A stretch of DNA of 41,573 nucleotides from an uncultured Actinomycetota bacterium (GTDB lineage: Bacteria; Actinomycetota; Nitriliruptoria; Euzebyales; Egibacteraceae). The DNA lies in contig CAYQMQ010000001.1 of NCBI GenBank assembly GCA_964418395.1, positions 1-41,573 of the forward strand, given 5' to 3'. The translations under genes were made by a program, and so were the position numbers. Below, piece by piece: positions 4,548-41,573 of this stretch. Numbering within the stretch: position 1 is the first letter of the stretch; every line of letters starts with the position of its first letter. The notes beneath the pieces are model-generated. The model ran no database searches and was not told the DNA's origin. It worked only from the letters and a program-made list of their open reading frames with translations.

Positions 4548-4601
4548 CGAACCGGCCACGCTACCAGCGTCGCGCGGGGGTGCTCGCCTACACTCCGGGG
4601 C

Positions 4602-5177: not shown

Positions 5178-5671
5178 CACCGGGTTCCAACAGCCGGGGC
5201 GGGGGCGACGGCGGCGGGGACGAGCGTCCAGCGGACCAGCCCTCGGTGACGATCCGCACGGCCGCCGACGCCGACGTGCCCGCGATCGTGGCGTTGTGGG
5301 ACGAGGCGGGGATGCTCGCCTACACCCCCGACCCCGCCGACGATCTCGCCCGCACCCGCGAGCACGACCCCGGCCTGGTGCTCGTCGCCGAGCGCGCCGG
5401 CCAGGTGGTGGGCACGATCACAGGGACGTGGGACGGGCGCCGCGGCTGGATCATGCGGTTGGCCGTCGCGACGGCGGCCCGCCGCCGTGGGATCGCGTCG
5501 CGGCTCACCGCCGAGGTCGAGACGCGCCTGCGCGCTCGCGGCGCCCGCCAGATCAACCTGCTGGTGATTACCCACAACCGGGAGGCGCTGGCGTTTTGGC
5601 GCGAGCGTGGCTACCGCTCCACCGTGCCGGTGGTCATGCTCACACACCGCTTCGACGAGGAGCAGCCCTAG
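5174..5671 (+). CDS. GNAT family N-acetyltransferase
   Basis: ORF 5174..5671. The acetyl-CoA binding core reads WIMRLAVATAARRRGIASRLTAEVETRLRARGARQINLLV...NREALAFWRERGY. GTG start 5174 overlaps the DUF1802 stop (GTGA). An alternative start is GTG 5246 (VTIRTA), which would skip a Gly-rich leader. Confidence 0.8.
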   Translation: MTPGSNSRGGGDGGGDERPADQPSVTIRTAADADVPAIVALWDEAGMLAYTPDPADDLARTREHDPGLVLVAERAGQVVGTITGTWDGRRGWIMRLAVATAARRRGIASRLTAEVETRLRARGARQINLLVITHNREALAFWRERGYRSTVPVVMLTHRFDEEQP

Positions 5672-7265: not shown

Positions 7266-7345
7266 TCCGCCGCATCGGGCCGTTGCACCGGCGCGGCGGC
7301 CTTTGCAGCTCCGACCCCCCCTTGGCATACTCGCGCTTTGCCCAC

Positions 7346-7429
7346 GTCGGCGTGGCGGAATTGGTAGACGCGCACGGTTGAGGGCCGTGTGGACTTCGGT
7401 CCTTGAGGGTTCAAGTCCCTCCGCCGACA
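7346..7429 (+). tRNA. tRNA-Leu, anticodon GAG, class II long variable arm, CCA not encoded
   Basis: Hand-folded cloverleaf. Acceptor stem GTCGGCG/CGCCGAC. D arm GCG-GAATTGGTAGA-CGC. Anticodon stem CACGG/CCGTG with loop TTGAGGG. Variable arm GGAC-TTCG-GTCC. T arm GAGGG-TTCAAGT-CCCTC. Discriminator A. Confidence 0.9.
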
Positions 7430-7511
7430 CTCCCCCTCGCCACACCGCCCGCTGGCCTGCGACACCGCCCCGGCGAAGCTCGCCGGGGCGTGGGGCCGCC
7501 GAGCCGGGCCC

Positions 7512-16085: not shown

Positions 16086-17798
<1,713 letters not shown>

Positions 17799-17893
17799 GC
17801 GCCGCCGCCGTCTCCGGCGTCGGGCGGAGGTTCTCACCGCTGTCCCTGGGCAGCCCTTGGCACGGGACGGGCGATAGGTACGATCAGGGGTCT

Positions 17894-26222: not shown

Positions 26223-28421
26223 GTGGCTCGGTGCGCTGACGTGCCGGGAGCTCCCGGTGACGACACGCCAACCGCGGTCACCCCGTCCGGGTCTCACCGA
26301 GCCGTGAGAGCCGTGACGGACGGGCTGGGGCCATCCGGGCAGCGAGCGCTGGGCTCGCTGACAGTCCTCCGGCGGCACACGCTGCGCGCCCTCACCAAGC
26401 TCCGCCAGCGTCCGCACGGTCAGTCCACCGACTTGGGGCTGGCCGCCACGGTCGGGGTCGCCACCGGCCTCTTGGCCGTCGCGCTGATCGAAGTCATCAG
26501 CGTGGTGCAGACGTTCGCGTTCGGCAGCGACCCCAGCCCGCTGCGTCTCGTGCTCGCCCCGACGATCGGGGCGCTGATCGTCGGGGTGCTGGTGACCTAC
26601 TGGGCCACCGAGACACGCGGCAGCGGCGAGGTCCAGATCATGCGCAGCATGGCGACCGGCGGCGGCGGGCTGCGGGGGCGCACGCCGCTGGCCGGCCTCC
26701 TGGCTTCCGGTGTGGTGCTGGGAAGCGGCGTGTCCGGCGGCCGCGAGGGACCGATCGTGCTGATCGGCGGCAGCGTCGGCTCGTTGCTGGCCCGCATCTT
26801 CACCCTCGATGAGGAGCGCAAGCGCGGCCTCATCGGCGCCGGCGCCGCGGCCGGGATCGGGGCCTCGTTCAACGCGCCGATCGGCGGGATGCTGTATGCC
26901 ATCGAGCTGATCCTGGGGGGACTGCGCGCACGCTCGCTGCAGATGGTGGTGATCGCCTCGGTCGTGGCCTCCGTCACCGCCCAGGAGATCATCGGCGCCG
27001 GCATCATCTACGAGCCCAGCGCCGTCTACGAGCTGAACGACCCCCGCGAGCTCCTGCTGTATCTGCTGCTCGGGCTCGCCGCCGTGGCCGCCGGCCTCGG
27101 CCTGCAGTACAGCGAATACTGGGTGAGCGTGCTGTTCGAGCGGGTCGAGCGAGTGCGGCTCTGGCGCGCGCTGGGGTTCACCGCCGGCGGTTTGGGCACC
27201 GGGATCATCGCGTTGTGGCTCCCTGAGGTGTTGGGCACCGGCGGCGAGCTGCCCCCGGTGACCGAGTACCGCGAACCGATCCAGGCGATGCTGGACAACG
27301 AGATGGGATTCGATCTCGATCTCGGCTTCGTCGCGGTGGCCTTTCTTCTGCTGCTGGCGATCGGCAAGCTAGTGGCCACCGCGCTCGCCGTCGGCAGCGG
27401 CAACCCCGTGGGCACGTTCGCGCCGCTGTTGTTCATCGGCGCCGGGCTCGGCGGCGCCTTCGGCAACGCGGCCGTGGCGCTGCTCCCGGGCTCGGGGATC
27501 AACGCCGGCGCGTTCGCCCTGGTGGGGATGGCCGCGGTGTTCAGCGCCGCTGCCCGCGCGCCGCTGACCGCGATCGTCATCCCGTTCGAGCTCACCGGCG
27601 ACTACGGGCTGGTGCTCCCGCTGATGCTCGCGGCGGGTATTGCCGCGCTCGTCGCGGACCGGATCCAGCCCGAGTCGATCCACACCATGCCGCTGCGACA
27701 CGAGGGGATCATCGCCAGCGAGCCCGAGGAGATCGACCTGCTGCAGACCGTGACGGTCGACGCCGTCATGACCACCGATCCGCTCACCGTCACCTCCGAC
27801 ACGACGATGCACACGCTGCGGGCCACGCTGCGGGAGGCCGGTCACGCCGTGCCCGTCGTGGACGGCGACCAACTCATCGGGGTCGTCGCGCCCGCCGACC
27901 TGCCCGCCGAGAGCACCGACGCCGACGAGTACCTGACGGCGGGCGATCTGTGCACCCGCGATCCGGTGACGGTGGCTCCCACCGCCCCCGTCTACCGCGC
28001 CATGCGCCGCATGGCGTCGCTCGACATCGGGATGGTGCCCGTCGTCGCCCAGCAACAGCCCCGCCGGCTCGTCGGTGTCGTCCGCCGGGACGACCTCGTC
28101 GACGCCTACCGCCAGGCAGCCAACCGCAGCCTCGGGATGCAACAGCGCCAGGAAGCCTCCCAGCTCCGCGACCTGGGCGGGGCACGGTTCCTCGAGCTCG
28201 CCGTGCACGCGGACGCGCCCGCCGCCGAGCAGGCGGTCCGCGACATCACCTGGCCCGACCGCGCCGTGCTGACCGGCGTCCACCGCGACGGCGAGCTGTT
28301 GCTGCCGGACGGCGACACGGTGCTTGAAGCCGGCGACCAGCTCGTGGTGCTCACCGACAAGGACAACACCGAAGAGCTGCGCCGGCTCATCACCGAGCCC
28401 CGGGAGTACGGGGCGGGTTGA
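26223..28421 (+). CDS. ClC family chloride channel/antiporter with C-terminal CBS pair and TrkA-C domain
   Basis: Complete ORF. ClC selectivity motifs are GSGEVQ, GREGPIVLIGG and GNPVGTFAP. A CBS pair follows (VDAVMTTDPLTV...VPVVDGDQLIGVV; GDLCTRDPVTV...MVPVV), then a TrkA-C-like end (LTGVHRDGELLLPDGDTVLEAGDQLVVL). The start is uncertain: there are several in-frame GTGs and no early ATG. Confidence 0.85.
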   Translation: MARCADVPGAPGDDTPTAVTPSGSHRAVRAVTDGLGPSGQRALGSLTVLRRHTLRALTKLRQRPHGQSTDLGLAATVGVATGLLAVALIEVISVVQTFAFGSDPSPLRLVLAPTIGALIVGVLVTYWATETRGSGEVQIMRSMATGGGGLRGRTPLAGLLASGVVLGSGVSGGREGPIVLIGGSVGSLLARIFTLDEERKRGLIGAGAAAGIGASFNAPIGGMLYAIELILGGLRARSLQMVVIASVVASVTAQEIIGAGIIYEPSAVYELNDPRELLLYLLLGLAAVAAGLGLQYSEYWVSVLFERVERVRLWRALGFTAGGLGTGIIALWLPEVLGTGGELPPVTEYREPIQAMLDNEMGFDLDLGFVAVAFLLLLAIGKLVATALAVGSGNPVGTFAPLLFIGAGLGGAFGNAAVALLPGSGINAGAFALVGMAAVFSAAARAPLTAIVIPFELTGDYGLVLPLMLAAGIAALVADRIQPESIHTMPLRHEGIIASEPEEIDLLQTVTVDAVMTTDPLTVTSDTTMHTLRATLREAGHAVPVVDGDQLIGVVAPADLPAESTDADEYLTAGDLCTRDPVTVAPTAPVYRAMRRMASLDIGMVPVVAQQQPRRLVGVVRRDDLVDAYRQAANRSLGMQQRQEASQLRDLGGARFLELAVHADAPAAEQAVRDITWPDRAVLTGVHRDGELLLPDGDTVLEAGDQLVVLTDKDNTEELRRLITEPREYGAG

Positions 28422-28422
28422 G

Positions 28423-29238
28423 TTGGCTGGCGCACCACCGGAGGCGAGCCGGTCAGGCGGGGAGGGCGCCGCCCGGGCCGGGGATCGGGCCGGGACAACG
28501 CCACCGGCACGCGCGCGCTTCCACGGCGACCTCGTCGAGCTGGCCGCATGTGCGGACCGGACCGGCCTCGTGCTGGTGCGCGCTCCGTCGCACCGCACGG
28601 TCAAGGATGCCGTGGAGGCGTGCGGCGTACCCCACACCGAGGTGGACCTGCTGCTGGCCGACGGCGCCAGCGTCGGCTTCGCCCACCGCGTGCGCCCCGG
28701 GGCCACGCTCGACGTGTACCCGTGGGCGGGCGCGCCCCCCGACGAGCCGCCCTCGCTCGTGCGGCCCGAGCCGCTGCCCGCGCGCTTCGTGGCCGACGTG
28801 CACCTGCACCGCCTCGCCCAGCTGCTCCGGTTGGTCGGCGTCGACGTCCGCGCTCACGCCGGCGCCGACGATCCCGAGTTGGTCGACACCGCCGTGACCG
28901 AACGCCGGTGGCTGCTCACCCGGGATCGGGGGCTGCTGATGCGCCGCCGGGTCACGCACGGCTACCTCGTGCGGGCCCACGACCCCCGCGCGCAGCTGCG
29001 CGAGGTGGTCGCCCGCTTCGGCCTCGCCGACCGGCTCGCGCCCTTGACCCGCTGTGCCCACTGCAACTCGGGGCTGGCGCCGGTGGCCAAGGCCGATGTC
29101 GCCCACCGCCTGGAGCCGGGCACCAAGGCGGCGTTCGACGACTTCGCTCAGTGCACCGGCTGCGGGCAGGTCTTTTGGCGCGGGGCCCACGCCGAAGCGC
29201 TGGACGAGCTCATCGCCTCGACCCGACAGGGCTCCTGA
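28423..29238 (+). CDS. Ub-Mut7C protein: N-terminal ubiquitin-like beta-grasp, Mut7-C (DUF82, PIN-like) RNase domain and zinc ribbon
   Basis: This is the tail of ORF 28324..29238. The beta-grasp reads RFHGDLVEL...VKDAVEACGVPHTEVDLLLADGASVGFAHRVRPGATLDVYP. The Mut7-C domain reads RFVADVHLHRLAQLLRLVGVDV...ERRWLLTRDRGLL...RCAHCN...CTGCGQVFWRGAH. The only start codon upstream of the domain and outside the ClC gene is TTG 28423, 1 nt after the ClC stop. Confidence 0.75.
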   Translation: MAGAPPEASRSGGEGAARAGDRAGTTPPARARFHGDLVELAACADRTGLVLVRAPSHRTVKDAVEACGVPHTEVDLLLADGASVGFAHRVRPGATLDVYPWAGAPPDEPPSLVRPEPLPARFVADVHLHRLAQLLRLVGVDVRAHAGADDPELVDTAVTERRWLLTRDRGLLMRRRVTHGYLVRAHDPRAQLREVVARFGLADRLAPLTRCAHCNSGLAPVAKADVAHRLEPGTKAAFDDFAQCTGCGQVFWRGAHAEALDELIASTRQGS

Positions 29239-29266
29239 CGCGGTGCCCGCGTCCCGCCGGTGTCCG

Positions 29267-30916
<1,650 letters not shown>

Positions 30917-31537
30917 TCATCGATTCACCTCGAGATCGAAGCACGGCTGGCACAGCTCTCGCCCGTCGAAGCGGCGGAGCCGCGTCTCCATGACCTCCTC
31001 ACCACAGCGGACGCAAGGCACCGACTCCTTGATGCGCGCCCGTCGGGGGGGCTCGTCGTCGGCCGGCTCCACGGTGTACAGCTCCTCGGGGTCTTGGGCG
31101 AGCACCTGCTTAGAGCGCTGCAGGTGCAGTTGGCGGAACCGGTCGCGGTCGGCGTCGGTGGCCTGCCCGGCGCTGATGCGCCCGCGCAGGCGCTGGTGCT
31201 CCGGGTCGGGCTGCAGCGCGCCGGGGCGAGCGGCGACGCGCACGGCCTTGCCGTCGCTGCGCCGGAAGAAGGTGAAGGCCTTCTTGCCCCAGTCCCGGTG
31301 GACGAGGTTGCCCTTGCCAAACGTGCAACCCGTGAGGAACTGGATCGCGTCCACCCCGCACATGTCGGTCTCGACCACGGCGACCACGTCCTCGTCGGTG
31401 GTGTCGGGGCCGACCTCACGCAGAGCGAGGCGCGCCGCTTGCACCCCCATCGCCAAACCGGGGCACTGGTGGCCGTGGAAGGCCACGAGGCGCTCCAGCA
31501 CGGAGTCGTCGACGGCGTCTGGTGCGGTTGCGGTCAT
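30917..31537 (-). CDS. FmdE/FwdE family protein with C-terminal CXXC...CXXC zinc ribbon
   Basis: Complete ORF. The FmdE-like core reads FHGHQCPGLAMGVQAARLAL...VVETDMCGVDAIQFLTGCTFGKGNL. The zinc ribbon is CVRCGEEV...CQPC. A GAAGGAG ribosome-binding site precedes ATG 31537. Confidence 0.75.
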   Translation of the reverse strand: MTATAPDAVDDSVLERLVAFHGHQCPGLAMGVQAARLALREVGPDTTDEDVVAVVETDMCGVDAIQFLTGCTFGKGNLVHRDWGKKAFTFFRRSDGKAVRVAARPGALQPDPEHQRLRGRISAGQATDADRDRFRQLHLQRSKQVLAQDPEELYTVEPADDEPPRRARIKESVPCVRCGEEVMETRLRRFDGRELCQPCFDLEVNR

Positions 31538-31562
31538 GTCGGCTCCTTCGAGGGACGGATCG

Positions 31563-31592
31563 TCAGGAGGATGCCTGTCAGGAGGATGCCTG
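31563..31592. repeat. Perfect 15-bp tandem duplication (TCAGGAGGATGCCTG x2) spanning the stop codon of the SBP gene
   Basis: Read directly: 31563..31577 and 31578..31592 are identical. On the coding (minus) strand this reads CAGGCATCCTCCTGA twice, that is ...Q A S S stop followed by a second untranslated Q A S S stop. Confidence 0.9.
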
Positions 31593-33299
31593 GTCGGGCA
31601 GGCCGGTCTCCTGGCCGGTAACGAACATGTGCTTGTTACGGCTGCCGCGGCACGGGCTGCAGCCGGGGGTGTAGTACCACCCGTCGAAGGTTGCCTCGTC
31701 GTAGAACAGATACCGGGTGGGCACGTACAGCGACAGCACCGGCAGATCCTCGGCGATCTCGCGCTGCAGGTCGGCCACGATCTCGCGGCGCTCGTCGGGG
31801 TCGGTGGCGGTCAGCTGCGCCTCAGCGAGCTCGTCCACCTCGTCGTTGGCGTAGCCGTGCACCGTGGAGTGCCCGCGCGGTGGCGCTTCGGAGTGGTAGC
31901 GCTGGCGCAGGGTGTCCGGATCGGACATCAGCCCGCCGTATCCGACGGCTGACATCGTGTAGTTGCCCTCGGTGGCGGCCTCGTCGGCCGACGACCGGTC
32001 GACAACGTTCGGTTGGACGTCGATGCCAACGTCGCCTAGGTACTCAGCGACCAGCTCCGGGCCGTCGGCGGTGAAGCGGGAGCTTGCCAGCAGCTCGATC
32101 TCGAAGGGCTCGCCGTTGGGCAGCTCGCGTGTGCCGTCGCCGTCGCTGTCGGTGATGTCGAGCCCCTCGAGCAGCTCGCGCGCCTGCTCGGGGTCGTGGT
32201 CGTAGGTGGGCAGATCTCCGGGGTTGAACGGATGCTCGGGCGCCAACCCGCCGCTGCTGCCGGGCAGCCCTCGGCCGAACACCAGCCGGTCCACCATGTC
32301 CTGCTGATCGACGGCGTAGGCCACCGCGTGGCGGAAGTCGACCTCGTCGTAGGGAAAGCCTTCCTCGAGGTTGAAATGCAGCGCGAGGTTCCAGTCCGCG
32401 AAGCCGTCCACTCGTCCGAACTGGGCGTCGAAGGCCTCGTATTGCTCGTCGGGCAGCGGCTCGCGGGCGATCTCGGCGACGTCGAGCTCGCCGCGTTCTA
32501 AGGCCAACAGCTCGTCCTCGACGGAGACGAACTCGACGCGCTGCACGTGGGGCTCACCCAGGAAGAAGTCGTCGTTGGCCTCGAACAGGTAGTTGCCGGC
32601 GGCCTCGTCGTATTCGACCAGTTCGTAAGGCCCCGAGCCCACGAAGGCATCGTCCTCGAGATACTGCTGCGGATCGTCGACGTCGGACCAGATGTGCTCG
32701 GGCAGGATCATCATGCTGCCGGCCACGTCCGACTCGAACGCGGCGTAGGCTTGAGGCAGCTCGAAGGTGACGGTGCGCTCATCGGTGGCGACGACGTCGT
32801 CGACGACTTCGAGCGACCCGCCGCGGCCGGTGTCGGCCGCGGCGCCCTCGGTGTAGTAGTCGAACGAGAACGCCACGTCGTCGGCCGTCAGGGGCTCGCC
32901 GTCCTGCCAGGCGATGTCCTCGTGGAGGGTGAACGTCCACTCGGTCCCGTCATCGCTCGCCTCCCAGTCCTGGGCCAGCCACGGGCCGAACTCGCCGGAC
33001 GCGTCCCACCACAGCAGGGTGTCGAACTGATAGCCCGCGAGGATGCGGCCAGGCCCGCGAACCCACGAGAACGGCGTGGGCTGGCCGTAGTCGCCCCCGG
33101 CCACCCGAAGCCGTTCGATTCGCTCGTCATCGCCTGTCGCGTCGTCGGCGGTCTGCTCGGTCTCGTCCGAATCGTCAGTCTCGGGCTCGTCGGCCTGTTG
33201 ATCCGGGTCAGCGGTCGGGTCGCAGGCGGCCACCAGAAGGGCCGTCAGCATCAGCCCCGCCAGCCACAGCCAGGCATTGGTCGTGCGAACAGCGTGCAT
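31578..33299 (-). CDS. ABC transporter substrate-binding lipoprotein, family 5 (peptide/nickel/opine type), copy 1
   Basis: This is the tail of ORF 31578..33404 from ATG 33299, preceded by AAGGAG 8 nt upstream. The lipoprotein signal is MHAVRTTNAWLWLAGLMLTALLVAAC, followed by a ~35-aa acidic tether (DPTADPDQQADEPETDDSDETEQTADDATGDDE). The SBP_bac_5 body reads YQFDTLLWWDASGEF.PWLAQDWEASDDGTEWTFTLHEDIAWQDGEPLTADDVAFSF. The C-terminal motif is GCSPC. Confidence 0.85.
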   Translation of the reverse strand: MHAVRTTNAWLWLAGLMLTALLVAACDPTADPDQQADEPETDDSDETEQTADDATGDDERIERLRVAGGDYGQPTPFSWVRGPGRILAGYQFDTLLWWDASGEFGPWLAQDWEASDDGTEWTFTLHEDIAWQDGEPLTADDVAFSFDYYTEGAAADTGRGGSLEVVDDVVATDERTVTFELPQAYAAFESDVAGSMMILPEHIWSDVDDPQQYLEDDAFVGSGPYELVEYDEAAGNYLFEANDDFFLGEPHVQRVEFVSVEDELLALERGELDVAEIAREPLPDEQYEAFDAQFGRVDGFADWNLALHFNLEEGFPYDEVDFRHAVAYAVDQQDMVDRLVFGRGLPGSSGGLAPEHPFNPGDLPTYDHDPEQARELLEGLDITDSDGDGTRELPNGEPFEIELLASSRFTADGPELVAEYLGDVGIDVQPNVVDRSSADEAATEGNYTMSAVGYGGLMSDPDTLRQRYHSEAPPRGHSTVHGYANDEVDELAEAQLTATDPDERREIVADLQREIAEDLPVLSLYVPTRYLFYDEATFDGWYYTPGCSPCRGSRNKHMFVTGQETGLPDQASS

Positions 33300-33337
33300 C
33301 GATGATTCTCCTTGTGTTGCCATGCGATTTCGGATTC

Positions 33338-33360
33338 GACCGGCGGGTGGCCCACCGGTC
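33338..33360 (-). other. GC-rich stem-loop in the methyltransferase/SBP intergenic spacer (10-bp stem)
   Basis: The plus strand reads GACCGGCGGG-TGG-CCCACCGGTC. On the minus-strand transcript this is GACCGGUGGG-CCA-CCCGCCGGUC, with all 10 positions paired (one G-U). On the plus strand the same position would be a C-A mismatch, so the structure favours the coding-strand RNA. No U-tract follows. Confidence 0.35.
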
Positions 33361-33376
33361 GCGCGCCGGTTTCTGA

Positions 33377-34183
33377 CTACTGCTCGGTGGGAGGCGTCCA
33401 CCACAATGTGGCGGTGGCCCGCGTCGCCGGCGGTGGGTAGCGCTCGAGCAGTTCACGGATCTCGGGATCCCGATCGGGACCGAGACACAGCCGCTTGCGG
33501 GCGAAGGCGACTCGGTCGTCCACGGTGCGGTCGAGGTTCATCGACCGGGCCCACCGCTCGACGTGCACGTGGTAGCCGGCGGCTCGGATCGCCGCGATGG
33601 CGTCGTCGGCGGTGGGGCCGGCGGGCAGTTCGATGCCGTGCACGTGCCACCAGTACGGCCTCAGCCAGGCCGTGGGGTGTTCCTGGGTGAGCTGGACGAC
33701 CACTCGCCGTCGAGCGTGATGGGTCAGCGCGTGGACGAACGACTCGAGGTCGGCCACGCCGTAGAGGACGTTGTGGCACACGACCACGTCGACCATGGGA
33801 GCCTGGTTGGCGATGTCGGGCCAACGGCCCACGAGGGTGTCAAAGGTCGCTCCGCGGGCAGCGGCACGATCAGCGAATGCCTGCAGCATGCCCTCGGACT
33901 CGTCCACGCCGAACAGCTGGCCGGCGGGTGGCACCAACGGCAGCGATCCGGCTCCGGCCCCAGAGCCGACGTCCAACACGTTGCCGCCCTCGGGCAGCAC
34001 CTCTCGGGCCGCCTGCTGTGACGGTGTCGTCTCGTGGAGGGTTGCGTCGGCGATCCGCGCGAAGTGGGCAACGTCGAACCCGTGGGGCGACTCCGGAGCC
34101 GCGGCACGGATTTCACCGGGCACTGCCCGAGCGGCCAACTGGTCTGCCCACCGTTGGGCGGGGTTCGGTGTGGTGGTCGTCAT
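33377..34183 (-). CDS. Class I SAM-dependent methyltransferase
   Basis: This is the tail of ORF 33377..34309 from ATG 34183 (MTTTTPNPAQRW...). SAM motif I is VLDVGSGAGAGS, followed by post-I FGVDESEGML and VVVCHNVLYGV. The substrate cannot be inferred from sequence. Confidence 0.8.
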   Translation of the reverse strand: MTTTTPNPAQRWADQLAARAVPGEIRAAAPESPHGFDVAHFARIADATLHETTPSQQAAREVLPEGGNVLDVGSGAGAGSLPLVPPAGQLFGVDESEGMLQAFADRAAARGATFDTLVGRWPDIANQAPMVDVVVCHNVLYGVADLESFVHALTHHARRRVVVQLTQEHPTAWLRPYWWHVHGIELPAGPTADDAIAAIRAAGYHVHVERWARSMNLDRTVDDRVAFARKRLCLGPDRDPEIRELLERYPPPATRATATLWWTPPTEQ

Positions 34184-34236
34184 CGTGAACCTCGAGGTGT
34201 CAGCCACTGACGTCGCGCAGCGGTAGCGGCCATAGA

Positions 34237-35934
34237 TCAGCCACCGGTGACGTAGAGGTACTTGTTGCGGGTCGCCCCGCAGGGGGTGCACGTCGGGGTG
34301 TAGGCCCATGCGTCGAACACCGACTCGTCGTAGAACGTCAGCCGGTCGGGCACGTACAGCGACAGCACGGGCAGGTCCTCGGCGAGGATCTGCATCATCT
34401 CGGCCACGATCTCCTTGCGCTCGTCCTCGTCGACGGTGACCAACTGTTGCTCGGCGAGCTCATCCAACTCGTCGTTCGCATAGCCGTGCACCGACGTGAA
34501 GCTGTCGTTCGGTGTCTCGGAGTGATACCGCTCGCGCAGCCGGTCGGGGTCGCTGCCCAACCCGCCATAGCCGTGCAGGGCCATCGTGTAGTTGCCTTCC
34601 TGGCCGGCTTCGTCGGAGCTGGCGCGATCCAGCATCGTCACCTGTACGTCCAAGCCAACCTCGCCGAGATATTCGGCCACCAGCTCGGGGTCCCGGGGTC
34701 CGAAGCGCTGGCTGGAGTTCAACTCGATCTCGAACGATTCACCGTTGGGCAGCTCGCGGGTGTCGTCATCGTCGGCGTCGGTGATGTCCAGCCCGTCGAG
34801 CAGCTCGCGGGCCTGCTCGAGATCGTGTTCGTAGGCCGGCAGATCGTTGGGGGTGTAGGGGTGGTCGGGGGTCAGTCCGCCGGTGCTTCCCGGTTGCCCG
34901 CGGCCGAACAGCAGCCGGTCGACCATGTCCTGGCGGTCGATGGCGTAGGCCACGGCGTGGCGAAAGTCGACCTCGTCGAAGGGAAAGCCGGCATCGAGGT
35001 TGAAGTGCAGCGCGTGGTTCCACTCCCCCGATGCCTCGGCCAGCCCGTATTGGGAGTCGAAGGACTCGAACTGCTCGTCGGGCAGCGGATCGCGGAACAC
35101 CCCGGCGGCGTGAATCTCGCCGCGCTCGAGGGCCAGCAGCTCGTCTTCGATCTCCGGTATGAACTCGAGGCGCTGCACCACGGGCTCGCCGAGGAAGAAG
35201 TCGTCGTTGGCCTCGTAGAGGTAGCTGCCGGCGGCCTCGTCGAACTCGACCAACTCGTAGGCACCCGTGCCGACGAACGCGTCGTCCTCGAGATATTGGC
35301 CCGGCTCGTCAACGTCGGACCAGATGTGCTCAGGCAGGATGAACATGCCCCAAAGTCCGGCCACGTTGTCCTCGAACCCGGCGAACGGCTGGGACAAACG
35401 GAAGACGACCTCGCGATCGCCTTCGGCGACGACCTCGTCCACGACGTCGAGGTTGCTGGTGTGAATCCCCGGTGGCCCGTCGGTCATGTACTCGAAGCTG
35501 AAGACCACGTCGTCGACCGTCAGCGGCTCGCCGTCGTGCCACTGCACGTCCTCGCGCAGGGTGAACGTCCATTCGGTGCCGTCGTCGTTGGACTCCCAGT
35601 CCTCGGCCAGCCACGGGATCGTCTCGCCATCGGGGTTCATCCACAGCAGCGTGTCGAACAAGAAGCCGGTGTGGATCAGCCCGGGACCACGCACGTAAGC
35701 GAAGGGTGTGGGGTGGCCGAAGTCGCCGCCGCCCAGCCGCAGCCGCTCGATGCGCTCGGTCTCGGCGGTGTCGTCGGACTCGTCGTCGGAGGTTTCGGAG
35801 CCGGTGTCGGATTCGTTCCCAGAAGCCGTGGCTTCGTCAGGAGAATCGTCGGCCGTCGGGCTGCACGCCACCGCCAGCGCGAGGCAGGCGAGCAGGAAAA
35901 TGGAGGTAAGCAGCTTGCCGGTCTTGGTCATCAT
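34237..35934 (-). CDS. ABC transporter substrate-binding lipoprotein, family 5, copy 2 (paralog of 31578..33299)
   Basis: Complete ORF. The lipoprotein signal is MMTKTGKLLTSIFLLACLALAVAC, with acidic tether SPTADDSPDEATASGNESDTGSETSDDESDDTAETE. The body is collinear with copy 1 (ERIERLRLGGGDFGHPTPFAYVRGPGLIHTGFLFDTLLWMNPDGETIPWLAEDWESNDDGTEWTFTLREDVQWHDGEPLTVDDVVFSFEY). The C-terminal motif is TCTPC. The start overlaps the ATPase stop (ATGATGA). Confidence 0.88.
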   Translation of the reverse strand: MMTKTGKLLTSIFLLACLALAVACSPTADDSPDEATASGNESDTGSETSDDESDDTAETERIERLRLGGGDFGHPTPFAYVRGPGLIHTGFLFDTLLWMNPDGETIPWLAEDWESNDDGTEWTFTLREDVQWHDGEPLTVDDVVFSFEYMTDGPPGIHTSNLDVVDEVVAEGDREVVFRLSQPFAGFEDNVAGLWGMFILPEHIWSDVDEPGQYLEDDAFVGTGAYELVEFDEAAGSYLYEANDDFFLGEPVVQRLEFIPEIEDELLALERGEIHAAGVFRDPLPDEQFESFDSQYGLAEASGEWNHALHFNLDAGFPFDEVDFRHAVAYAIDRQDMVDRLLFGRGQPGSTGGLTPDHPYTPNDLPAYEHDLEQARELLDGLDITDADDDDTRELPNGESFEIELNSSQRFGPRDPELVAEYLGEVGLDVQVTMLDRASSDEAGQEGNYTMALHGYGGLGSDPDRLRERYHSETPNDSFTSVHGYANDELDELAEQQLVTVDEDERKEIVAEMMQILAEDLPVLSLYVPDRLTFYDESVFDAWAYTPTCTPCGATRNKYLYVTGG

Positions 35935-37751
35935 GTGGTTACTCCGGGTTCATGCGAGTGACGGTCGGGGGCGGAGAGGGTGTGGGCCTGCCCGTTGGGA
36001 GACGCCTGAGGTCCCTGGGCCAGCGGAGCGCCGCTGGCGGCGAGCAGCCGTTGGGTGACGGGGTGTTGAGGGGCGACCAGCAGCTGCGTGCTGGTGGCCT
36101 CCTCGACGACCCGACCCTCGTCGAGCACCACGACACGGTCGGCGACGCGCAGGACCACGGCGAGGTCGTGGGAGATGAAGATCATCGCCATCCCGCGGTC
36201 GACCTGCAGGGTCTTGAGCAGCTGCAACAGCTTGGTCTGCTCGGAGGGGTCGAGCATGGCCACGGACTCGTCGGCGATGAGCAGCTTGGGCTCGAGCACC
36301 AGCGCGCGGGCCAGCGCCACCCGCTGCAGCTGGCCGCCGGACAGCTCGTGGGTGTGGCGCTCCAGGAAGCTGGGATCGGCCGGCAGCCGGGCGTCGCTGA
36401 GGGCGTCGGCGACAGTGGCGTCGCGGTCGCCGGGTTCGCCGAGATGTTGGATGTCGAGTGGCTCGCGCACCGCCTGGCGCACCGTCAGCCGTGGCGACAA
36501 GGCCTCGAAGGGGTCTTGGAACAGCATCTGGGCCTTCTGGCGCAGGGCCTTGAGCGCGTCGTGGCCGGCGGCGAGCACGTCGCGGGCCTGCAGGTGGACG
36601 CTGCCGGCGTCGGGCTCGACCAGCCGCAACAGCAGCTGGCCCAGCGTCGACTTGCCGGCCCCGGTCCCGCCGACGCAGCCCAGGACCTCGCCTTCGCGGA
36701 CCTCGAGGTCGATGCCGTCGACGGCGGTGACGGTCTCGCGGCGGACCACGCCGGTGCGCACCTGATAGGTCTTGCGCAGCCCGCGCGCGGACAACACCGG
36801 CACCAGCCCGCCGCGGATGCACGCGACCGTGCGGGCTCCGTCCTCACCCTCGGGGGCCAGCAACGGCGGCCGGTCGTGGGTGCACTCGTCGATCGCTTGG
36901 GTGCAGCGCTCGAAGAACGGACACCCCGTGGCCACCTCGGTGGGGTCGGGTGGCATGCCGCGGATGCCGCGCAGGTCCTTGACGGTGCCCAGCGACGGAT
37001 AGGCGTTGAGCAGCCCCCAGGTGTAAGGGGCCCGGGGGTCGTCCAGGATCCGCTCGGCGGGGCCGATCTCGGCCAGCCAGCCCCGGTAGAGGACCGCCAC
37101 CCGATTGGCGAGCCCGCGCAGCGCGTCGACGTCGTGGGTGAACACCACCAGCGTCCGCCCCGCGTCGCGCATCCCGGCCAGCAGCTGCAACACCTCGTGG
37201 CGGCGCAGCACATCGAGCCCGGCGGTGGGCTCGTCCAGGACCACGACGTCGGGGTCGCAGGCCAGCGCGATGGCCAAAAGCGACAGACGACGTTGGCCAC
37301 CGGACAGCTCGTTGGGGTAGCGCGCCACGGCCCACGCCCCGAGACCGACCTCCTCCAACAACTGCGCGGCGCGCTGGCTGGCGGCGCGCGGGCTCAGGTC
37401 CAGATGGACCTGGATCGGTTCGGCGATCTGGTCGCCGACGCGCAGTACGGGGTTGAGCGCCGCCGTCGACTGGAACACCAGCGACAAGCGGCGCCAGCGG
37501 ACCTCGCTCCAGCCGTCCTCGTCGAGCTCCACGAGGTCGGTGCCGTCGAGGCGCGCCGTGCCCTCGAGCTGGGCCTCGGGCACCAAGCCCAGCAACGCCT
37601 TGGCCAGTGTCGACTTGCCCGATCCGGATTCGCCGAGCACCCCGACGCACTCGCCCGAGTGCACGGTCAGGTCCAGGTCGTCCACGGCCCGCACCGGCGG
37701 CGGGCCGGGATAGGTCACCCGGAGCCCGCTGATGTCCAACGCTGCGGTCAC
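35931..37751 (-). CDS. ABC transporter ATP-binding protein, fused tandem (DppD/DppF-like) ATPase
   Basis: This is the C-terminal 606 codons of ORF 35931..38642. Cassette 1 has GESGSGKST, LSGGQRRLSLLAIAL and VVVLDEPTAGLD. Cassette 2 has GGTGAGKSTL, LSGGQLQRVALARAL and LLIADESVAMLD. An Opp-type Cys motif, GCPFFERC...C, lies between the cassettes. GTG start 37751 overlaps the permease stop (GTGA). Confidence 0.88.
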   Translation of the reverse strand: MTAALDISGLRVTYPGPPPVRAVDDLDLTVHSGECVGVLGESGSGKSTLAKALLGLVPEAQLEGTARLDGTDLVELDEDGWSEVRWRRLSLVFQSTAALNPVLRVGDQIAEPIQVHLDLSPRAASQRAAQLLEEVGLGAWAVARYPNELSGGQRRLSLLAIALACDPDVVVLDEPTAGLDVLRRHEVLQLLAGMRDAGRTLVVFTHDVDALRGLANRVAVLYRGWLAEIGPAERILDDPRAPYTWGLLNAYPSLGTVKDLRGIRGMPPDPTEVATGCPFFERCTQAIDECTHDRPPLLAPEGEDGARTVACIRGGLVPVLSARGLRKTYQVRTGVVRRETVTAVDGIDLEVREGEVLGCVGGTGAGKSTLGQLLLRLVEPDAGSVHLQARDVLAAGHDALKALRQKAQMLFQDPFEALSPRLTVRQAVREPLDIQHLGEPGDRDATVADALSDARLPADPSFLERHTHELSGGQLQRVALARALVLEPKLLIADESVAMLDPSEQTKLLQLLKTLQVDRGMAMIFISHDLAVVLRVADRVVVLDEGRVVEEATSTQLLVAPQHPVTQRLLAASGAPLAQGPQASPNGQAHTLSAPDRHSHEPGVTT

Positions 37752-38656
37752 GACGTCCTCCCGGTCGAGTGACGAGCCAGTCGGGGATTGATGCGCTGTT
37801 CGACGCCCACGCCGAGGAACGTGATCCCGAGCAACAGCACGGTGATGGCCACCAGCGGCGGGCCCAGCCACCACATCCAGGCGGTGGTGTAGAACACCCC
37901 CGAGAACTCCAGCGAGTCGCGCATGATCTGGCCCCAGCTGGCCCGGCTGGGGTCGCCCAGCCCGAGGAAGGCCAGGCCGGCTTCGAGCATCACGGCGCGG
38001 CCGGCGGACGAGACCAGCCCGGCCACCAGAATCAGCCCGACCTCGGGCAAGAGGTGGCGGCGCAGCACGTAGGCGGTCTCTCCGCCAAATCCCATGGCGG
38101 CCTTGACGTGGGAGCGGCGCCGCAGCGACAGGACCTGGGAGCGCACCACGCGGGCCGAGCTGGGCCAGAACGTCAGCGCGATCGCCGCCGAGATCACCCA
38201 GATGGACGGGCCCGCGTAGGCGCCCAGCACGATCAGCAGCGGCAGCCGGGGGACGGCCAGCACGAAGTCGACCACGCGCATCGCCGCCGCGTCGACCAGC
38301 CCGCCGACCCAGCCGGCCATCATCCCGACCAGCGCGCCGATCACCACCGTGCCGCCGCCGGCCAGGGCGGCCACGGTCAGCGACACGCGCGCGCCGGACA
38401 CCAGCTGGCTGGTCAGGTCCTGGCCGACCCCGTTGGTGCCCAACAGGTGGGTGGCACTCGGCGGTTGCAGCGGCTGGCCGATCAGCTCGGTGGGCCGGTA
38501 GGGGGCCACCCACCCTCCGAGCGCCGCGACGGCCACCACGGCGGTCACGATGGCCACGCCGACCCACCCGATGGTCGGCAACGCGCCCCCTGCTGCCCGA
38601 AGCCGCTTGCTGGCCGGGGCTCGCGCCGGGTTCGGCGACCACACGCCGCTGGTCAT
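37748..38656 (-). CDS. ABC transporter permease (DppC/NikC-like)
   Basis: Complete ORF. It has an N-terminal TM segment, the LLGTNGVGQDLTSQL motif, and an EAA-like loop (SHVKAAMGFGGETAYVLRRHLLPEV). ATG 38656 overlaps the upstream permease stop (ATGA). Confidence 0.88.
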   Translation of the reverse strand: MTSGVWSPNPARAPASKRLRAAGGALPTIGWVGVAIVTAVVAVAALGGWVAPYRPTELIGQPLQPPSATHLLGTNGVGQDLTSQLVSGARVSLTVAALAGGGTVVIGALVGMMAGWVGGLVDAAAMRVVDFVLAVPRLPLLIVLGAYAGPSIWVISAAIALTFWPSSARVVRSQVLSLRRRSHVKAAMGFGGETAYVLRRHLLPEVGLILVAGLVSSAGRAVMLEAGLAFLGLGDPSRASWGQIMRDSLEFSGVFYTTAWMWWLGPPLVAITVLLLGITFLGVGVEQRINPRLARHSTGRTS

Positions 38657-39840
38657 TCGGTTCCCACCCGCGGGTCGAGCCGCCGGTAGACCAGCTCGAT
38701 GACGAAGTTGGCCGCCAGCACCGTGACCGCCAGCGTCAAAAACACCGCTTCCAGCACGGGGTAGTCGCGCGCTTCGACCGCTTCGAGGATCAGCGCGCCC
38801 ATGCCGGGATAGGCAAAGACCGTCTCGACGAAGATCGAGCCGCCCACCGCCGTGCCCACCTGCAGCGCCATCACCGTCAGAAACGGCAGCAGCGCGTTGC
38901 GGCCCACGTGGCGGAACTGCTGCAGCCGCACCGGCAGGCCTTTCGCGCGGGCCAGCTGCATGTAGTCCTCACCCAGCACCGAGATCGCGGTGTTGCGCAC
39001 CAACAAGAACTTGGTGCCGATCAGCGACAGCGTCAGCGCCAGCAGCGGCAACGCGAGGTGGAAGGCGACGTCGCCGATCTGTTCCCACACCGACTCGTAT
39101 TCGGCAAACGACGTGTAGGCGCCGAACAGGGGAAACAGCGGGATCAAGACGGCCAGGCCGATCATCAGCAGGGCCGCCAGCGCGTACTCGGGCAGCCCGC
39201 GCAGCCCCGTCAGGGCCACCAGCACCACGCGGTCCGGCAAGCGCCCGCGGTTCCAGGCGGCCACGATCCCCGCCACGTAGCTGATCGTGGCCGACAGCAG
39301 CAATGCTAAGCCGACCAGCAGCAGCGTCCACGGCAGGTGGCCGGCGATCAGGCCTGCCACGGGGGCGTTGCGCGCCACCGACCAGCCCAGGTCGCCGGTG
39401 GCGAGGCTGCCCAGATAGTCCACGTACTGCTCGTGCAGCGGCCCGTCGAGGCCGTAGTAGCTCAACACCTGCTGGCGGACCTCGGGGTCGGTGATGAAAT
39501 AGCCCGTGTCCGGGTCCTCCAGCGCCGACAACGGATCGCCGGGCATCGCCCGCGGCAACAAGAACACCATGGTCACGATCGCCATCAACGTGATCCCGTA
39601 CAGCCCGATCAGCCGCAACGTGGCGCCGCGTCGACTCCTAACCGGCGGTGCCTCGAGTTCCTCCCCGCCCGGACTCGTCGAATCGGCCGGATGCGCGGGT
39701 GGGGCCGGGCCATCGGGTGCCGGCGACGGGGCGCCAGCGGGGCCAGCGGCCCCATCTCGCGTGCGCGTCAGAGGTGCCTCCTGTCTGTCCCTGCCGTCGC
39801 TTCCTTCCTGCGCATCCGTATACTCGGACTTCAAGCGCAC
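38653..39840 (-). CDS. ABC transporter permease (DppB/NikB-like); 5' boundary uncertain
   Basis: ORF 38653..39840 (GTG start). The conserved body begins near LRLIGLYGITLMAIVTMVFLLPRAMPGDP and includes the EAA-like loop DYMQLARAKGLPVRLQQFRHVGRNALLP. The first 74 codons are Pro/Ala/Gly-rich, and by my count 22 of them end in A/T, unlike the rest of the gene. TTG 39618 may therefore be the true start. Confidence 0.8.
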   Translation of the reverse strand: MRLKSEYTDAQEGSDGRDRQEAPLTRTRDGAAGPAGAPSPAPDGPAPPAHPADSTSPGGEELEAPPVRSRRGATLRLIGLYGITLMAIVTMVFLLPRAMPGDPLSALEDPDTGYFITDPEVRQQVLSYYGLDGPLHEQYVDYLGSLATGDLGWSVARNAPVAGLIAGHLPWTLLLVGLALLLSATISYVAGIVAAWNRGRLPDRVVLVALTGLRGLPEYALAALLMIGLAVLIPLFPLFGAYTSFAEYESVWEQIGDVAFHLALPLLALTLSLIGTKFLLVRNTAISVLGEDYMQLARAKGLPVRLQQFRHVGRNALLPFLTVMALQVGTAVGGSIFVETVFAYPGMGALILEAVEARDYPVLEAVFLTLAVTVLAANFVIELVYRRLDPRVGTE

Positions 39841-39860
39841 TCGAGATCAATAGGTGTCTT

Positions 39861-41573
39861 TTGCATACAGCAAACAGTCGCGACGGTGCGGAGCGGCTGC
39901 TGTCCATCGGGGAGGTGGCCCAGCGCACGCAGCTGCGCCCATCGGCCTTGCGCTTCTACGAGGAGAAGGGGCTGATCACCCCGACCACCAGGATCGGCGG
40001 CAAGCGCCGCTATCACCCCGCGATCCTGCGTCGCCTAGCCCTCATCGAGATGGCCACCCGGGCGGGGTTCACGCTGGCCGAGACCGGCGAATTGCTCGGC
40101 GACACCAGCGACGAGCCGAGCTGGCGGCAGTGGGACGACCTGGCCACCCGGAAGGTCCACGAGCTCGAGGAGACCATTCAGCGGGCGCGGACCATGCAGC
40201 GCCTACTAGAGGACGGTCCGTTCAGTGTGCGGCGAGCGGGCGGCCGGTGGGGCTATCCCTCGCCGTTCGCCTACCGACGCGGTCCGGGGCTGACCCAGGC
40301 CAGCCTCCTGTTCGACACCCTGCTGTGGAAAAACACTGATGGCCACCTGCTGCCATGGCTGGCCGCGAGCTGGGACCTGCGCACCGACGGGCGCGCGTAC
40401 CGGTTCATGCTGCGCGACGACGTCGAGTGGGCCGACGGCGTCGCCTTCACCGCAGACGACGTGGCCTTCACCGTCACCTACCTCACCTCAGGCGCCGGCA
40501 ACCGGCCCCTGGTCAGCCACGCCCGCGGACTCGACGCCGTTGACGGCGTCCGCGTCGACGACGACCACACCGTCACCTTCGAGCTGAAACGGCCCCACGC
40601 GTCGTTCCTCGAATGGGTCGCCGGGCGCATGCTCATCATCCCCCGCCACGTCTGGGAGGGCGTCACCGATCCGGTCAGCTTCCGCCAGCCCGAGGCGACC
40701 GTCGGCACCGGGCCTTACCGGCTGGAGTCGTGCGACGACGAGGCGGGAAGCTATCGCTACACGGCCAACGACGGCTACTTTCAGGGAGCACCCTACGTGC
40801 GACGCCTCGAGTTCGTGCCCGTGCGCGACTCGTTGAACGCGCTCGCCAACGGGGAGATCGACGTCGCCGAGTACATCTCTGACGCGCATCGACCCAGCCG
40901 CCAGCAGCTCGAGGGCTTCGCCTTCCCCGACTACGCACAGCGGACCCGCCCCGGGGAGTGGACGCGGGCCCTCCACGTGAACCTGTCACGTGGCTTTCCC
41001 TACGACGACCGGCGCTTTCGCCACGCGGTGGCCCACGCCATCGACCGACCGGCTTTGATCGACGCATTGCTCGACGGTCTCGGCGAGCCCGGCAGCCCCG
41101 GCGGCATGGCCCCGTCCCACGCGTGCGCCGCTTCTGGCTTGCCCACCTACCAGCACGACCCGGCCGCCGCTCGGGCACTGCTCGACCAGCTCGGCATGGC
41201 CTCCCACCCGAGCGCCCGACTTCGAGGGCTGCCAGACGGCAGCTCCTTCCGGCCAGTGTTGCAGACGGACGCCAACGACCCTGGCGCCGCCGAGCTCGTC
41301 GCCGCACAACTGCAGGAGGTGGGCCTTGACGTCCGGGTCGCGCGCATGCCACCAGACCAAGCGGACGCGACTGCTGCGGCGGGCGGCTACGAGCTCGCGC
41401 TCGTCGGCCACGGCTCGTTGGGTGGGGATCCCGATCTGCTGCGGTTGCAGCTGTCTGTCCACGCGCCGTCGAGGCAGCGCACCAAGGCCCACGGCTATCA
41501 CCACCCCGAAGTTGAGCGTCTCGCCGAGGCGCAGCGCCGGTGTCTCGATACCACTCGCCGCCGTCAGCTGCTC
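39861..41573 (+). CDS. MerR-family HTH domain fused in frame to a signal-less family-5 substrate-binding (SBP_bac_5) domain; 3' end lies beyond the window
   Basis: Not in the ORF track because no stop lies in the window. My translation in the frame of TTG 39861 stays open for all 571 codons to 41573. The MerR part reads ...RLLSIGEVAQRTQLRPSALRFYEEKGLITPTTRIGGKRRYHPAILRRLALIEMATRAGFTLAETGELL, followed by the coiled coil WRQWDDLATRKVHELEETIQRARTMQRLLED. It then runs directly into GGRWGYPSPFAYRRGPGLTQASLLFDTLLWKNTDGHLLPWLAASWDLRTDGRAYRFMLRDDVEWADGVAFTADDVAFTVTYL... This last stretch aligns residue for residue with the two lipoprotein SBPs of the facing operon. The start codon is uncertain (TTG; no in-frame ATG or GTG nearby). 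Confidence 0.8.
   Translation, partial: MHTANSRDGAERLLSIGEVAQRTQLRPSALRFYEEKGLITPTTRIGGKRRYHPAILRRLALIEMATRAGFTLAETGELLGDTSDEPSWRQWDDLATRKVHELEETIQRARTMQRLLEDGPFSVRRAGGRWGYPSPFAYRRGPGLTQASLLFDTLLWKNTDGHLLPWLAASWDLRTDGRAYRFMLRDDVEWADGVAFTADDVAFTVTYLTSGAGNRPLVSHARGLDAVDGVRVDDDHTVTFELKRPHASFLEWVAGRMLIIPRHVWEGVTDPVSFRQPEATVGTGPYRLESCDDEAGSYRYTANDGYFQGAPYVRRLEFVPVRDSLNALANGEIDVAEYISDAHRPSRQQLEGFAFPDYAQRTRPGEWTRALHVNLSRGFPYDDRRFRHAVAHAIDRPALIDALLDGLGEPGSPGGMAPSHACAASGLPTYQHDPAAARALLDQLGMASHPSARLRGLPDGSSFRPVLQTDANDPGAAELVAAQLQEVGLDVRVARMPPDQADATAAAGGYELALVGHGSLGGDPDLLRLQLSVHAPSRQRTKAHGYHHPEVERLAEAQRRCLDTTRRRQLL

Follow-up and report, generated by a model that had tools for sequence, protein, structure and literature searches.

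The DNA analyzed here, 41,573 nucleotides from contig CAYQMQ010000001.1 of an uncultured Actinomycetota bacterium (Egibacteraceae) and hereafter called the window, carries an ATP-binding cassette (ABC) importer operon. In it the genes of two permeases, a fused double ATPase and two substrate-binding proteins (SBPs) are accompanied by those of an S-adenosylmethionine (SAM)-dependent methyltransferase and an FmdE-family protein. Genes and domains were assigned by a Pfam profile search of the translated open reading frames (ORFs), and subfamily scores were obtained with NCBIfam. The operon comprises seven co-directional genes on the minus strand (30917-39840, counted as maximal ORFs). A gene for a MerR regulator fused to a family-5 SBP domain (SBP_bac_5; hereafter SBP5) diverges from it (Table 1). 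Gene content and order agree by Pfam with those given in an earlier note on this DNA, and the three 4-nt stop/start overlaps reported there were read again on the coding strand: ATGA at 38653..38656, GTGA at 37748..37751 and ATGA at 35931..35934. The other genes are separated by 53 nt (34184-34236), 77 nt (33300-33376) and 40 nt (31538-31577). Shine-Dalgarno-like sequences precede SBP1 (AAGGAG) and the FmdE gene (GAAGGAG); that of the methyltransferase is weak. A scan with sigma-70 and terminator consensus sequences found no terminator-like sites between the operon genes, a result that is uninformative in DNA of 70% G+C. The seven genes are a real operon for an ABC importer of the nickel/peptide family.

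Table 1. Genes and control elements of the importer locus.
Feature	Position	Strand	Evidence or remark
FmdE-family protein, PF02663 + zf-dskA_traR, 206 aa	30917..31537	-	Pfam 151 bits / 30 bits
SBP1, SBP_bac_5 lipoprotein, 573 aa	31578..33299	-	PF00496 230.8 bits
Class I SAM-dependent methyltransferase, 268 aa	33377..34183	-	Methyltransf_25/11/12 matches
SBP2, SBP_bac_5 lipoprotein, 565 aa	34237..35934	-	PF00496 240.4 bits
Fused double ABC ATPase, 606 aa	35931..37751	-	2x ABC_tran + one oligo_HPY (PF08352)
OppC/NikC-like permease, 302 aa	37748..38656	-	BPD_transp_1 + OppC_N
OppB/NikB-like permease, probably 321 aa from TTG 39618	38653..39618	-	BPD_transp_1; maximal ORF to GTG 39840
MerR-type promoter/operator	39820..39850	-	Faces transporter operon; shared with 5 other loci
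MerR-HTH::SBP_bac_5 regulator, 571 of ~633 aa before window end	39861..41573	+	MerR, MerR_1, MerR-DNA-bind, SBP_bac_5

The extent of the operon up to 39840, as drawn in that note, stands for the gene content; the start of the first permease at this position probably does not. The only in-frame starts of this gene are 39840/39834 and, next, 39618. Since the -10 element of the conserved promoter described below lies at 39825-39820, GTG 39840 would be upstream of the likely transcription start, and translation therefore probably begins at TTG 39618, leaving a leader of ~195 nt. This untranslated leader (39619-39813 in the window) measures ~600 nt (2200-2800) in locus L004, from an Egibacteraceae metagenome-assembled genome (MAG). 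The window leader had no match in Rfam, and an alignment of the window and L004 leaders revealed nothing conserved beyond the operator.

The importer has the characteristic parts of the Nik/Opp/Dpp (PepT) group, which it shares with NikABCDE of E. coli: family-5 SBPs, OppB/OppC-type permeases and two ATPase domains with oligo_HPY. The permeases were recognized by BPD_transp_1 together with OppC_N or BPD_transp_1_N. The importer differs from NikABCDE in its fused ATPases, in two tethered SBPs whose genes follow that of the ATPase, in a MerR::SBP protein that takes the place of NikR, and in the FmdE and methyltransferase genes that form part of the operon. The NCBIfam equivalog models were mostly missed by a wide margin. 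For the permeases, NikB scored 165 bits (cut-off 447), NikC 143 bits (cut-off 358) and Opp4C 197 bits, also below its cut-off. The two SBPs scored 116.5 and 126.5 bits with the NikA model (cut-off 393) and 78.6 and 89.2 bits with the CntA model (cut-off 800). Ranked by score, Opp4A, NikA and CntA came before DppA and OppA, all far under cut-off, the top scores of SBP2 being 142 bits for Opp4A and 126.5 bits for NikA. For the fused ATPase, the scores with nikE (368, cut-off 332.6) and nikD (324, cut-off 318.7) are sums over its two domains and are exceeded by that of a dipeptide-type model (426, cut-off 408). As the equivalog cut-offs were not reached, the importer is no orthologue of NikABCDE or CntABCDF.

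The presence of two paralogous lipoprotein SBPs, claimed in the earlier note, was borne out by Pfam and by their 65% identity, and the lipoboxes, acidic tethers and C-x-P-C pairs are as described there. SBP1 has a signal peptide, lipobox Cys26, a D/E/T/S-rich tether at about residues 27-60 and CSPC at 547-550; SBP2 has a signal peptide, lipobox Cys24, a tether of the same composition at about residues 25-61 and CTPC at 549-552. The C-x-P-C pair, about 15-25 residues from the C-terminus, supplies the sole further cysteines of each protein. The pair had been put forward as a conserved feature, but it does not mark the family: only about one third of the FmdE-linked SBPs, an actinobacterial subclade, have it, and elsewhere a Gly/Pro loop takes its place. 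The pair is also absent from the cytoplasmic sensor paralogue in L004; the window sensor ends before that position. A role as conserved ligand site was rejected on these grounds. The patchy distribution and the absence from the cytoplasmic paralogue make an extracellular structural disulfide the likelier function. Both SBPs are very acidic (isoelectric point (pI) 4.05, 22% D+E, 5% K+R) compared with the cytoplasmic regulator paralogue (pI 6.1). This looks like a salt adaptation of secreted proteins and would fit a haloalkaliphilic host similar to Nitriliruptoria/Egibacter. It probably also explains the lower G+C content at 31-36 kb (0.66-0.70) within a window of 66-78% G+C, in which the genes of Pup ligase and the ARC/Mpa ATPase are actinobacterial markers.

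The FmdE protein was matched by PF02663 far above the gathering threshold of 22.9 bits, and PDB entry 2gvi was matched across both domains (E=1.6e-11). The N-terminal domain contains FHGHQC (residues 20-25), C60, D63, Q66, T69 and C71, and the C-terminal domain a C4 finger composed of CVRC (175-178) and CQPC (196-199). The protein thereby resembles the family members of known structure (2GVI, 2GLZ, 3D00) in the FHGHxC motif with its cysteine site, the D/Q/T dimer-interface motif and the C-terminal Cys4 treble-clef. The N-terminal motif is that of the His2Cys2 Zn/Ni site described in PMC2954224; the site is intact in the window protein, and none of the metal-site residues varies among 17 homologues. 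In the crystals this site was solvent-exposed and held Zn and Ni, and the adjoining groove fits a sizeable ligand (PMC2954224). Unlike the name-giving proteins, the window protein is by context no formylmethanofuran dehydrogenase subunit: no fmd/fwd catalytic-subunit genes were present among the scanned window genes or the annotated or scanned genes of the relatives' loci. The earlier note had called the FmdE family functionally unresolved. This is correct, and a 2026 paper still states that the function is undetermined, but an association was already on record: in 2010 most PF02663 genes were noted to lie next to genes of metal-ion transporters (PMC2954224).

To the authors of the structures, the C-terminal treble-clef finger and the intertwined dimer suggested regulation or protein-protein interaction (PMC2954224). 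FmdE might thus be a regulator or adaptor that uses its zinc finger to tune the transporter ATPase or transcription to metal status, without accepting metal itself, and Methanosaeta fusions of FmdE to a transcription regulator have been reported (PMC11237513). We consider this quite improbable, as the loci already contain dedicated regulators (MerR::SBP, PadR, LysR and Cys-rich MerR proteins) and the invariant, exposed His2Cys2 site in its large groove looks like a ligand site.

Database searches returned more than 3,300 FmdE homologues at E<=1e-5, many of them 63-88% identical to the window protein. The best 80 of 533 FmdE matches in species-representative genomes, together with four further loci (L001-L004), gave a sample of 84 FmdE-anchored loci. 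Most of these are MAG contigs, their lengths are uneven and they cluster phylogenetically, so that the counts given here describe the sample and not independent events. Neighbours were counted by tblastn with the window proteins, and separately for the subset of 31 loci flanked by 6 kb or more on each side. In the 80 scanned loci, FmdE is 44-68% identical to the window protein; the loci derive from Acidimicrobiia, Gaiellaceae, Rubrobacteraceae, Solirubrobacterales, Egibacteraceae, Anaerolineae, Pyrinomonadaceae, Desulfobacterota and ANME-2/Methanosarcinales.

In 50 of the 84 loci, and in 21 of the 31 well-flanked ones, FmdE has an SBP5 homologue at a distance of no more than 8 kb; permeases are present in 37 and 19, respectively. 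The SBP5-linked loci come from five phyla (Actinomycetota, Chloroflexota, Acidobacteriota, Desulfobacterota and Methanosarcinales including ANME-2), and the median distance between FmdE and SBP genes in a gene-cluster census was 125 bp. The closest relative, L089, with proteins 78-90% identical, has the order MerR-SBP / permB-permC-ATPase-SBP2-SBP1-FmdE. The SBP5 linkage across the sample and the gene order in L089 indicate that FmdE is a conserved component of this transporter type, and a conserved FmdE-SBP5 neighbourhood, part of the gene set that the earlier note had proposed to look for, was found across phyla. Judged by gene context, FmdE is thus a conserved putative partner of such importers in both domains of life. 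This subfamily (44-88% identical across phyla) differs from the known FmdE proteins in its tie to SBP5 importers and, in its actinobacterial members, also in a tie to methyltransferases. In distant Desulfobacterota loci the same subfamily ends a Peripla_BP_2-FecCD-ATPase operon and also adjoins Mod/Tup-type importers, which extends the association with metal-ion transporters noted in 2010.

Three loci (L035, L042, L049) contain two FmdE paralogues each, 39-56% identical to the window protein, and in each of them one paralogue adjoins an SBP5 transporter. Compared with the window, the permeases, ATPase and SBPs of L004 are 80-89%, FmdE 66% and MerR-SBP 45-49% identical. These uneven values, set against the uniform 78-90% of L089, suggest module exchange between lineages.

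The divergent regulator consists of an N-terminal MerR HTH with its dimerisation helix (PF13411, PF00376, PF09278) followed by an SBP_bac_5 domain of ~500 aa. Its start codon is probably TTG 39861, and full-length homologues have 615-690 aa. Aligned along the entire mature domain, the sensor shares 44% identity with SBP2. No Cys is present in the first 120 residues, and the short C-terminal effector domain with metal-binding Cys of the metal-sensing MerR subgroup is not present. Fusions of this type form ~40 sequence clusters in Actinomycetota. The five other loci that were read (L004, L089, L090, L091, L092) all have the regulator gene in divergent orientation to an SBP5 gene or to the transporter as a whole.

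A promoter-like element points from the regulator gene towards the operon. Its parts in the window are a -35 TTGATC (39850-39845), a 19-nt spacer (39844-39826) and a -10 GAGTAT (39825-39820), and the spacer contains the dyad TCGAG (39844-39840)-N4-CTTGA (39835-39831). The six loci (the window, L004 and L089-L092) share in register the consensus TTGAY(Y), a 19-nt spacer with TCRAG-N4-CTTGA, and xAxxxT as -10. The dyad arms are perfect over 7-8 bp in L004 and L092. The element begins 10-35 nt upstream of the regulator start codon in all six and is directed at the transporter. When the consensus of the five other loci was searched against the 41.6-kb window, a single match was obtained, at 39829-39850 on the minus strand, and none of 100 shuffles matched. 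A dyad within a 19-nt spacer is characteristic of promoters activated by MerR proteins. Control of the whole unit by the MerR-SBP protein, as the earlier note had it, is therefore well supported by the conserved promoter, and the divergent arrangement agrees with it. The pairing of regulator and promoter is directly visible in these loci; the ligand would then activate the promoter.

A cytoplasmic family-5 SBP domain also serves as sensor in SgrR-type regulators, and weak matches to the SgrR model NF010149 were obtained for SBP2 and the regulator. Here, in contrast, the sensor is joined to a MerR HTH and coiled coil, acts at a 19-nt-spacer promoter and is a 44% identical paralogue of the transporter's own SBPs. 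The regulator-operator pair could be used for ligand identification and possibly as a biosensor scaffold.

The methyltransferase contains motif I (DVGSGAG, 71-77), and its AlphaFold model has a mean confidence (pLDDT) of 95.4. Foldseek matched SAM methyltransferases at probability 1.0, of generic small-molecule types at TM scores of 0.5-0.6. The neighbours span carboxyl, thiol, lipid and prenyl methyltransferases and include BioC, Tam and HvrF (carboxyl) and GtmA/TmtA (thiol). For the substrate class, NCBIfam (far under cut-offs), a PDB sequence search and Foldseek yielded generic class I matches only. Among 359 ORFs that lie no more than 2.5 kb from FmdE or transporter genes and were classified by Pfam, class I methyltransferases were the commonest non-transporter neighbour. 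Methyltransferase-like ORFs are found near FmdE in 21 of 84 loci within 6 kb (by iterated profile searches), in 22 of 84 within 8 kb and in 13 of the 31 well-flanked loci. Three unrelated types recur: the window type in L001, L005 and L020; a Methyltransf_2-like type in 11 loci, between ATPase and SBP genes or after FmdE; and a DVU_1556-like type in Anaerolineae. The coupling to FmdE can be close: in L004 and L089 the FmdE stop lies in a 4-nt overlap with the methyltransferase gene, and in L001 the latter begins 3 nt after FmdE. In L089 the methyltransferase-like gene follows SBP2-SBP1-FmdE, and in L092 three methyltransferases lie among the FmdE, SBP and permease genes. Archaeal fusions of FmdE to a TrmO-like methyltransferase have been reported (PMC11237513).

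The position between two SBP genes, which had drawn attention to the embedded methyltransferase, is unique to the window, and L089 and L004 have no methyltransferase there. The genes at 26223-31537 of the window and 6912-14468 of L001 are syntenic (CLC channel, Mut7-C, IMPDH-like, then the FmdE locus). In L001, FmdE is directly followed by a methyltransferase 60% identical to that of the window, and the transporter is absent. This indicates that FmdE and methyltransferase are the local core, that the order in the window was rearranged, and that the transporter block was gained or lost beside a resident FmdE-methyltransferase pair. Thus the recurrence of methyltransferases in FmdE loci holds, while the slot between the SBPs is a local rearrangement and homologues also occur elsewhere. 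A methyltransferase family dedicated to FmdE was rejected, as four homologues of 50-60% identity (L085-L088) have no FmdE or transporter nearby; the SBP beside the one in L086 is only 29% identical to the window SBPs.

These homologues, the unique slot and the weak Shine-Dalgarno sequence would be expected if the methyltransferase were a passenger without role and only FmdE belonged to the transporter. We regard this as unlikely in view of the frequency of methyltransferases among the neighbours, the three non-homologous types that entered the same operons, the overlapping or directly following genes in L001, L004 and L089, and the cluster with three methyltransferases. The evidence for membership of the methyltransferase in the system, drawn from gene context, is mixed but mostly positive.

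With respect to the cargo, the relatives' FmdE genes are neighboured by Cys-rich, ZntR/CueR-like MerR regulators, CDF exporters, FUR, PadR, and FecCD and Mod-type importers. Nickel in particular is represented by a CooT nickel-chaperone gene directly after FmdE in L080 and L073, CooT-like ORFs near FmdE in L081 and L040, and NiFe-hydrogenase small-subunit genes within a few kb of FmdE in eight loci of four lineages. In L001, genes for nickel superoxide dismutase (Ni-SOD) and an S26 peptidase lie 2 kb from the FmdE-methyltransferase pair. The intact His2Cys2 site of FmdE and the ranking of the SBP model scores, with NikA and CntA ahead of DppA and OppA, are further hints in the direction of nickel. 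The metal or metal-chelate cargo considered in the earlier note fits these neighbours. A transition metal is the most likely cargo suggested by gene context, with nickel as the best-supported candidate, and the SBP-type cytoplasmic sensor argues for a chelate and not a bare ion.

A small protein of ~120 aa was also seen near FmdE in seven loci (L017, L031, L036, L042, L049, L055, L062). It has a winged HTH and a C-terminal HGEC..(D)C.CH...C tail rich in Cys and His. Neither Pfam nor NCBIfam matched it, and it may represent a new kind of small regulator that senses metal.

Another conceivable cargo is cobalt, a corrinoid or another tetrapyrrole, with a tetrapyrrole-related methyltransferase. 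Some loci have CbiX and CbtA genes and FecCD/Peripla_BP_2 importers in the vicinity of FmdE, the methyltransferase weakly matches the CpaM and BchM/ChlM models, and a cobalamin riboswitch adjoins the operon in L081. This riboswitch, however, belongs to a different gene on the opposite strand, the model scores are far under the cut-offs, and the fold search showed no preference for tetrapyrrole methyltransferases. Moreover, when the window and 31 related loci were searched with Rfam, no operon was preceded by a cobalamin or NiCo riboswitch; the matches overall were one tRNA, one tmRNA and the riboswitch of L081. The lack of a cobalamin riboswitch before any of these operons makes cobalt or a corrinoid less likely, and we judge such a cargo very improbable. 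In L081, an Anaerolineae MAG, the riboswitch (8093-8238, minus strand) lies immediately upstream of and divergent from an operon with CooT-like, methyltransferase, FmdE and transporter genes; the small ORF that it apparently controls (7205-7630) had no Pfam match.

The importer could instead carry an organic nutrient or another non-metal ligand, such as a thiol-containing or modified peptide. FmdE and the methyltransferase would then be a Zn-dependent processing pair, performing Zn-thiolate activation followed by S- or O-methylation, with metal only as cofactor. Family-5 SBPs are mostly peptide binders, the top PDB matches include Lmo0135 and chitooligosaccharide-binding proteins, and a sensor of the SBP type points to a ligand bigger than an ion. 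The thiol (GtmA/TmtA) and carboxyl (BioC/Tam/HvrF) methyltransferases among the Foldseek neighbours, the translational coupling of FmdE and methyltransferase and the archaeal fusions would also suit an enzyme pair. On the other hand, the same FmdE subfamily occurs in FecCD/Peripla_BP_2 operons and beside Mod/Tup importers, CooT, CDF and Cys-rich MerR proteins of the metal type, and many FmdE-transporter loci have no methyltransferase. We consider an organic cargo unlikely.

The explanation that we favour, at a probability of about one half, is that the operon and the divergent MerR::SBP5 gene form one regulatory and functional unit: a Nik/Opp-family importer of a metal chelate under MerR::SBP5 control, with FmdE as acceptor and a ligand-modifying methyltransferase. 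Two salt-adapted, tethered lipoprotein SBPs would deliver a small metal chelate, with nickel as leading candidate, to the permease-ATPase complex. In the cytoplasm, the His2Cys2 site of FmdE, which is open to solvent, would take up the metal or the chelate. The SBP domain of the regulator would sense the imported ligand and switch on the 19-nt-spacer promoter. The methyltransferase would act on a small molecule linked to this traffic; most plausibly, although this is speculative, it would modify the co-imported ligand, leading to metal release or ligand disposal. ABC-2 exporter pairs (ATPase and ABC2_membrane) are found in or beside the FmdE/SBP5 clusters of six loci (L003, L007, L008, L016, L083, L092), though not in the window, and would fit export of the modified ligand.

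Several observations weigh against this explanation. The nickel-related neighbours are found in a minority of loci, and the closest relatives have none except the Ni-SOD gene of L001. No NikR or Nur could be assigned, and the window itself has no nickel-enzyme gene. P-loop ATPases near FmdE were considered as CooC and rejected, as NCBIfam recognized only generic MinD/ParA/BcsQ types. The SBPs stay under every NCBIfam equivalog cut-off, including those of NikA and CntA. Sugar- and cysteine-binding proteins are among their best PDB matches beside NikA, those of SBP2 being a chitooligosaccharide-binding protein, Lmo0135 and NikA. Ligand-activated MerR control would be unusual for a nutrient-metal importer, since such importers are normally metal-repressed. 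To these points are added the clustered locus sample and the unrelated contexts of the window-type methyltransferases in L085-L088.

In a far-reaching version, FmdE proteins in general would be cytoplasmic receivers for Nik/Opp, FecCD and Mod/Tup importers. In the actinobacterial form, the methyltransferase would strip Ni from the imported chelator by methylating the latter, FmdE would capture the metal for Ni enzymes, and MerR::SBP would sense the chelate and drive substrate-induced uptake. We hold this version to be unlikely. If true, it would give PF02663 a function, which could be extended to the methanogen FmdE subunit, and would add a new metal-release chemistry.

Among known systems, the Cnt/staphylopine system (CntABCDF with CntKLM) is similar in having an SBP5 importer for metal chelates, a cargo that is only proposed here, and a SAM-using enzyme in the operon. 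The window operon differs in its ordinary class I methyltransferase and in the low scores with the CntA model (79-89 bits versus 800), and Pfam found no nicotianamine-synthase-like or opine-dehydrogenase domains in it. Some siderophore systems modify or sense the ligand after import: FiuC of Pseudomonas acetylates ferrichrome, and PchR senses imported ferri-pyochelin. Here modification in the cytoplasm releases or recycles the chelator, and the complex taken up activates the regulator. The analogy to the window operon is conceptual only, as protein families, metal and chemistry all differ.

A literature search on FmdE, PF02663 and COG2191 in combination with methyltransferase, ABC transporter, nickel and metallochaperone found no description of the module, and a paper on nickel in cable bacteria does not mention FmdE. 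The module, which is uncharacterised and probably concerned with nickel-related uptake, recurs in many bacteria and some archaea. Structures of FmdE (PF02663) have been available since 2010 without a function. The association described here, of FmdE with an SBP5 importer, often a methyltransferase and often a dedicated regulator of metal type, is widespread and tightly conserved and opens this question to experiments in bacteria. Should nickel be the cargo, the module would be an unrecognised nickel route in Acidimicrobiia, Gaiellales, Rubrobacteria, Nitriliruptoria, Anaerolineae, Desulfobacterota and ANME/Methanosarcinales, many of which depend on NiFe hydrogenases, Ni-SOD, carbon monoxide dehydrogenase or F430.

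Elsewhere in the window, three ORFs have ambiguous starts. The polyphosphate kinase ORF at 16976-20131 encodes 1052 aa with the PPK domains beginning at residue 363, which reflects either a long N-terminal extension or an over-extended ORF in high-GC DNA; the same ambiguity applies to a TtuA-like PP-loop ORF (3360-5180) and an IMPDH-like ORF (29267-30877). In addition, two secreted proteins with triple CWB2 cell-wall-binding repeats are encoded at 12032-14005 and 23663-26107, one fused to a glucose/sorbosone dehydrogenase domain and the other to GHL10. CWB2 repeats are best known from Clostridia, and their presence in an actinobacterial window deserves mention.

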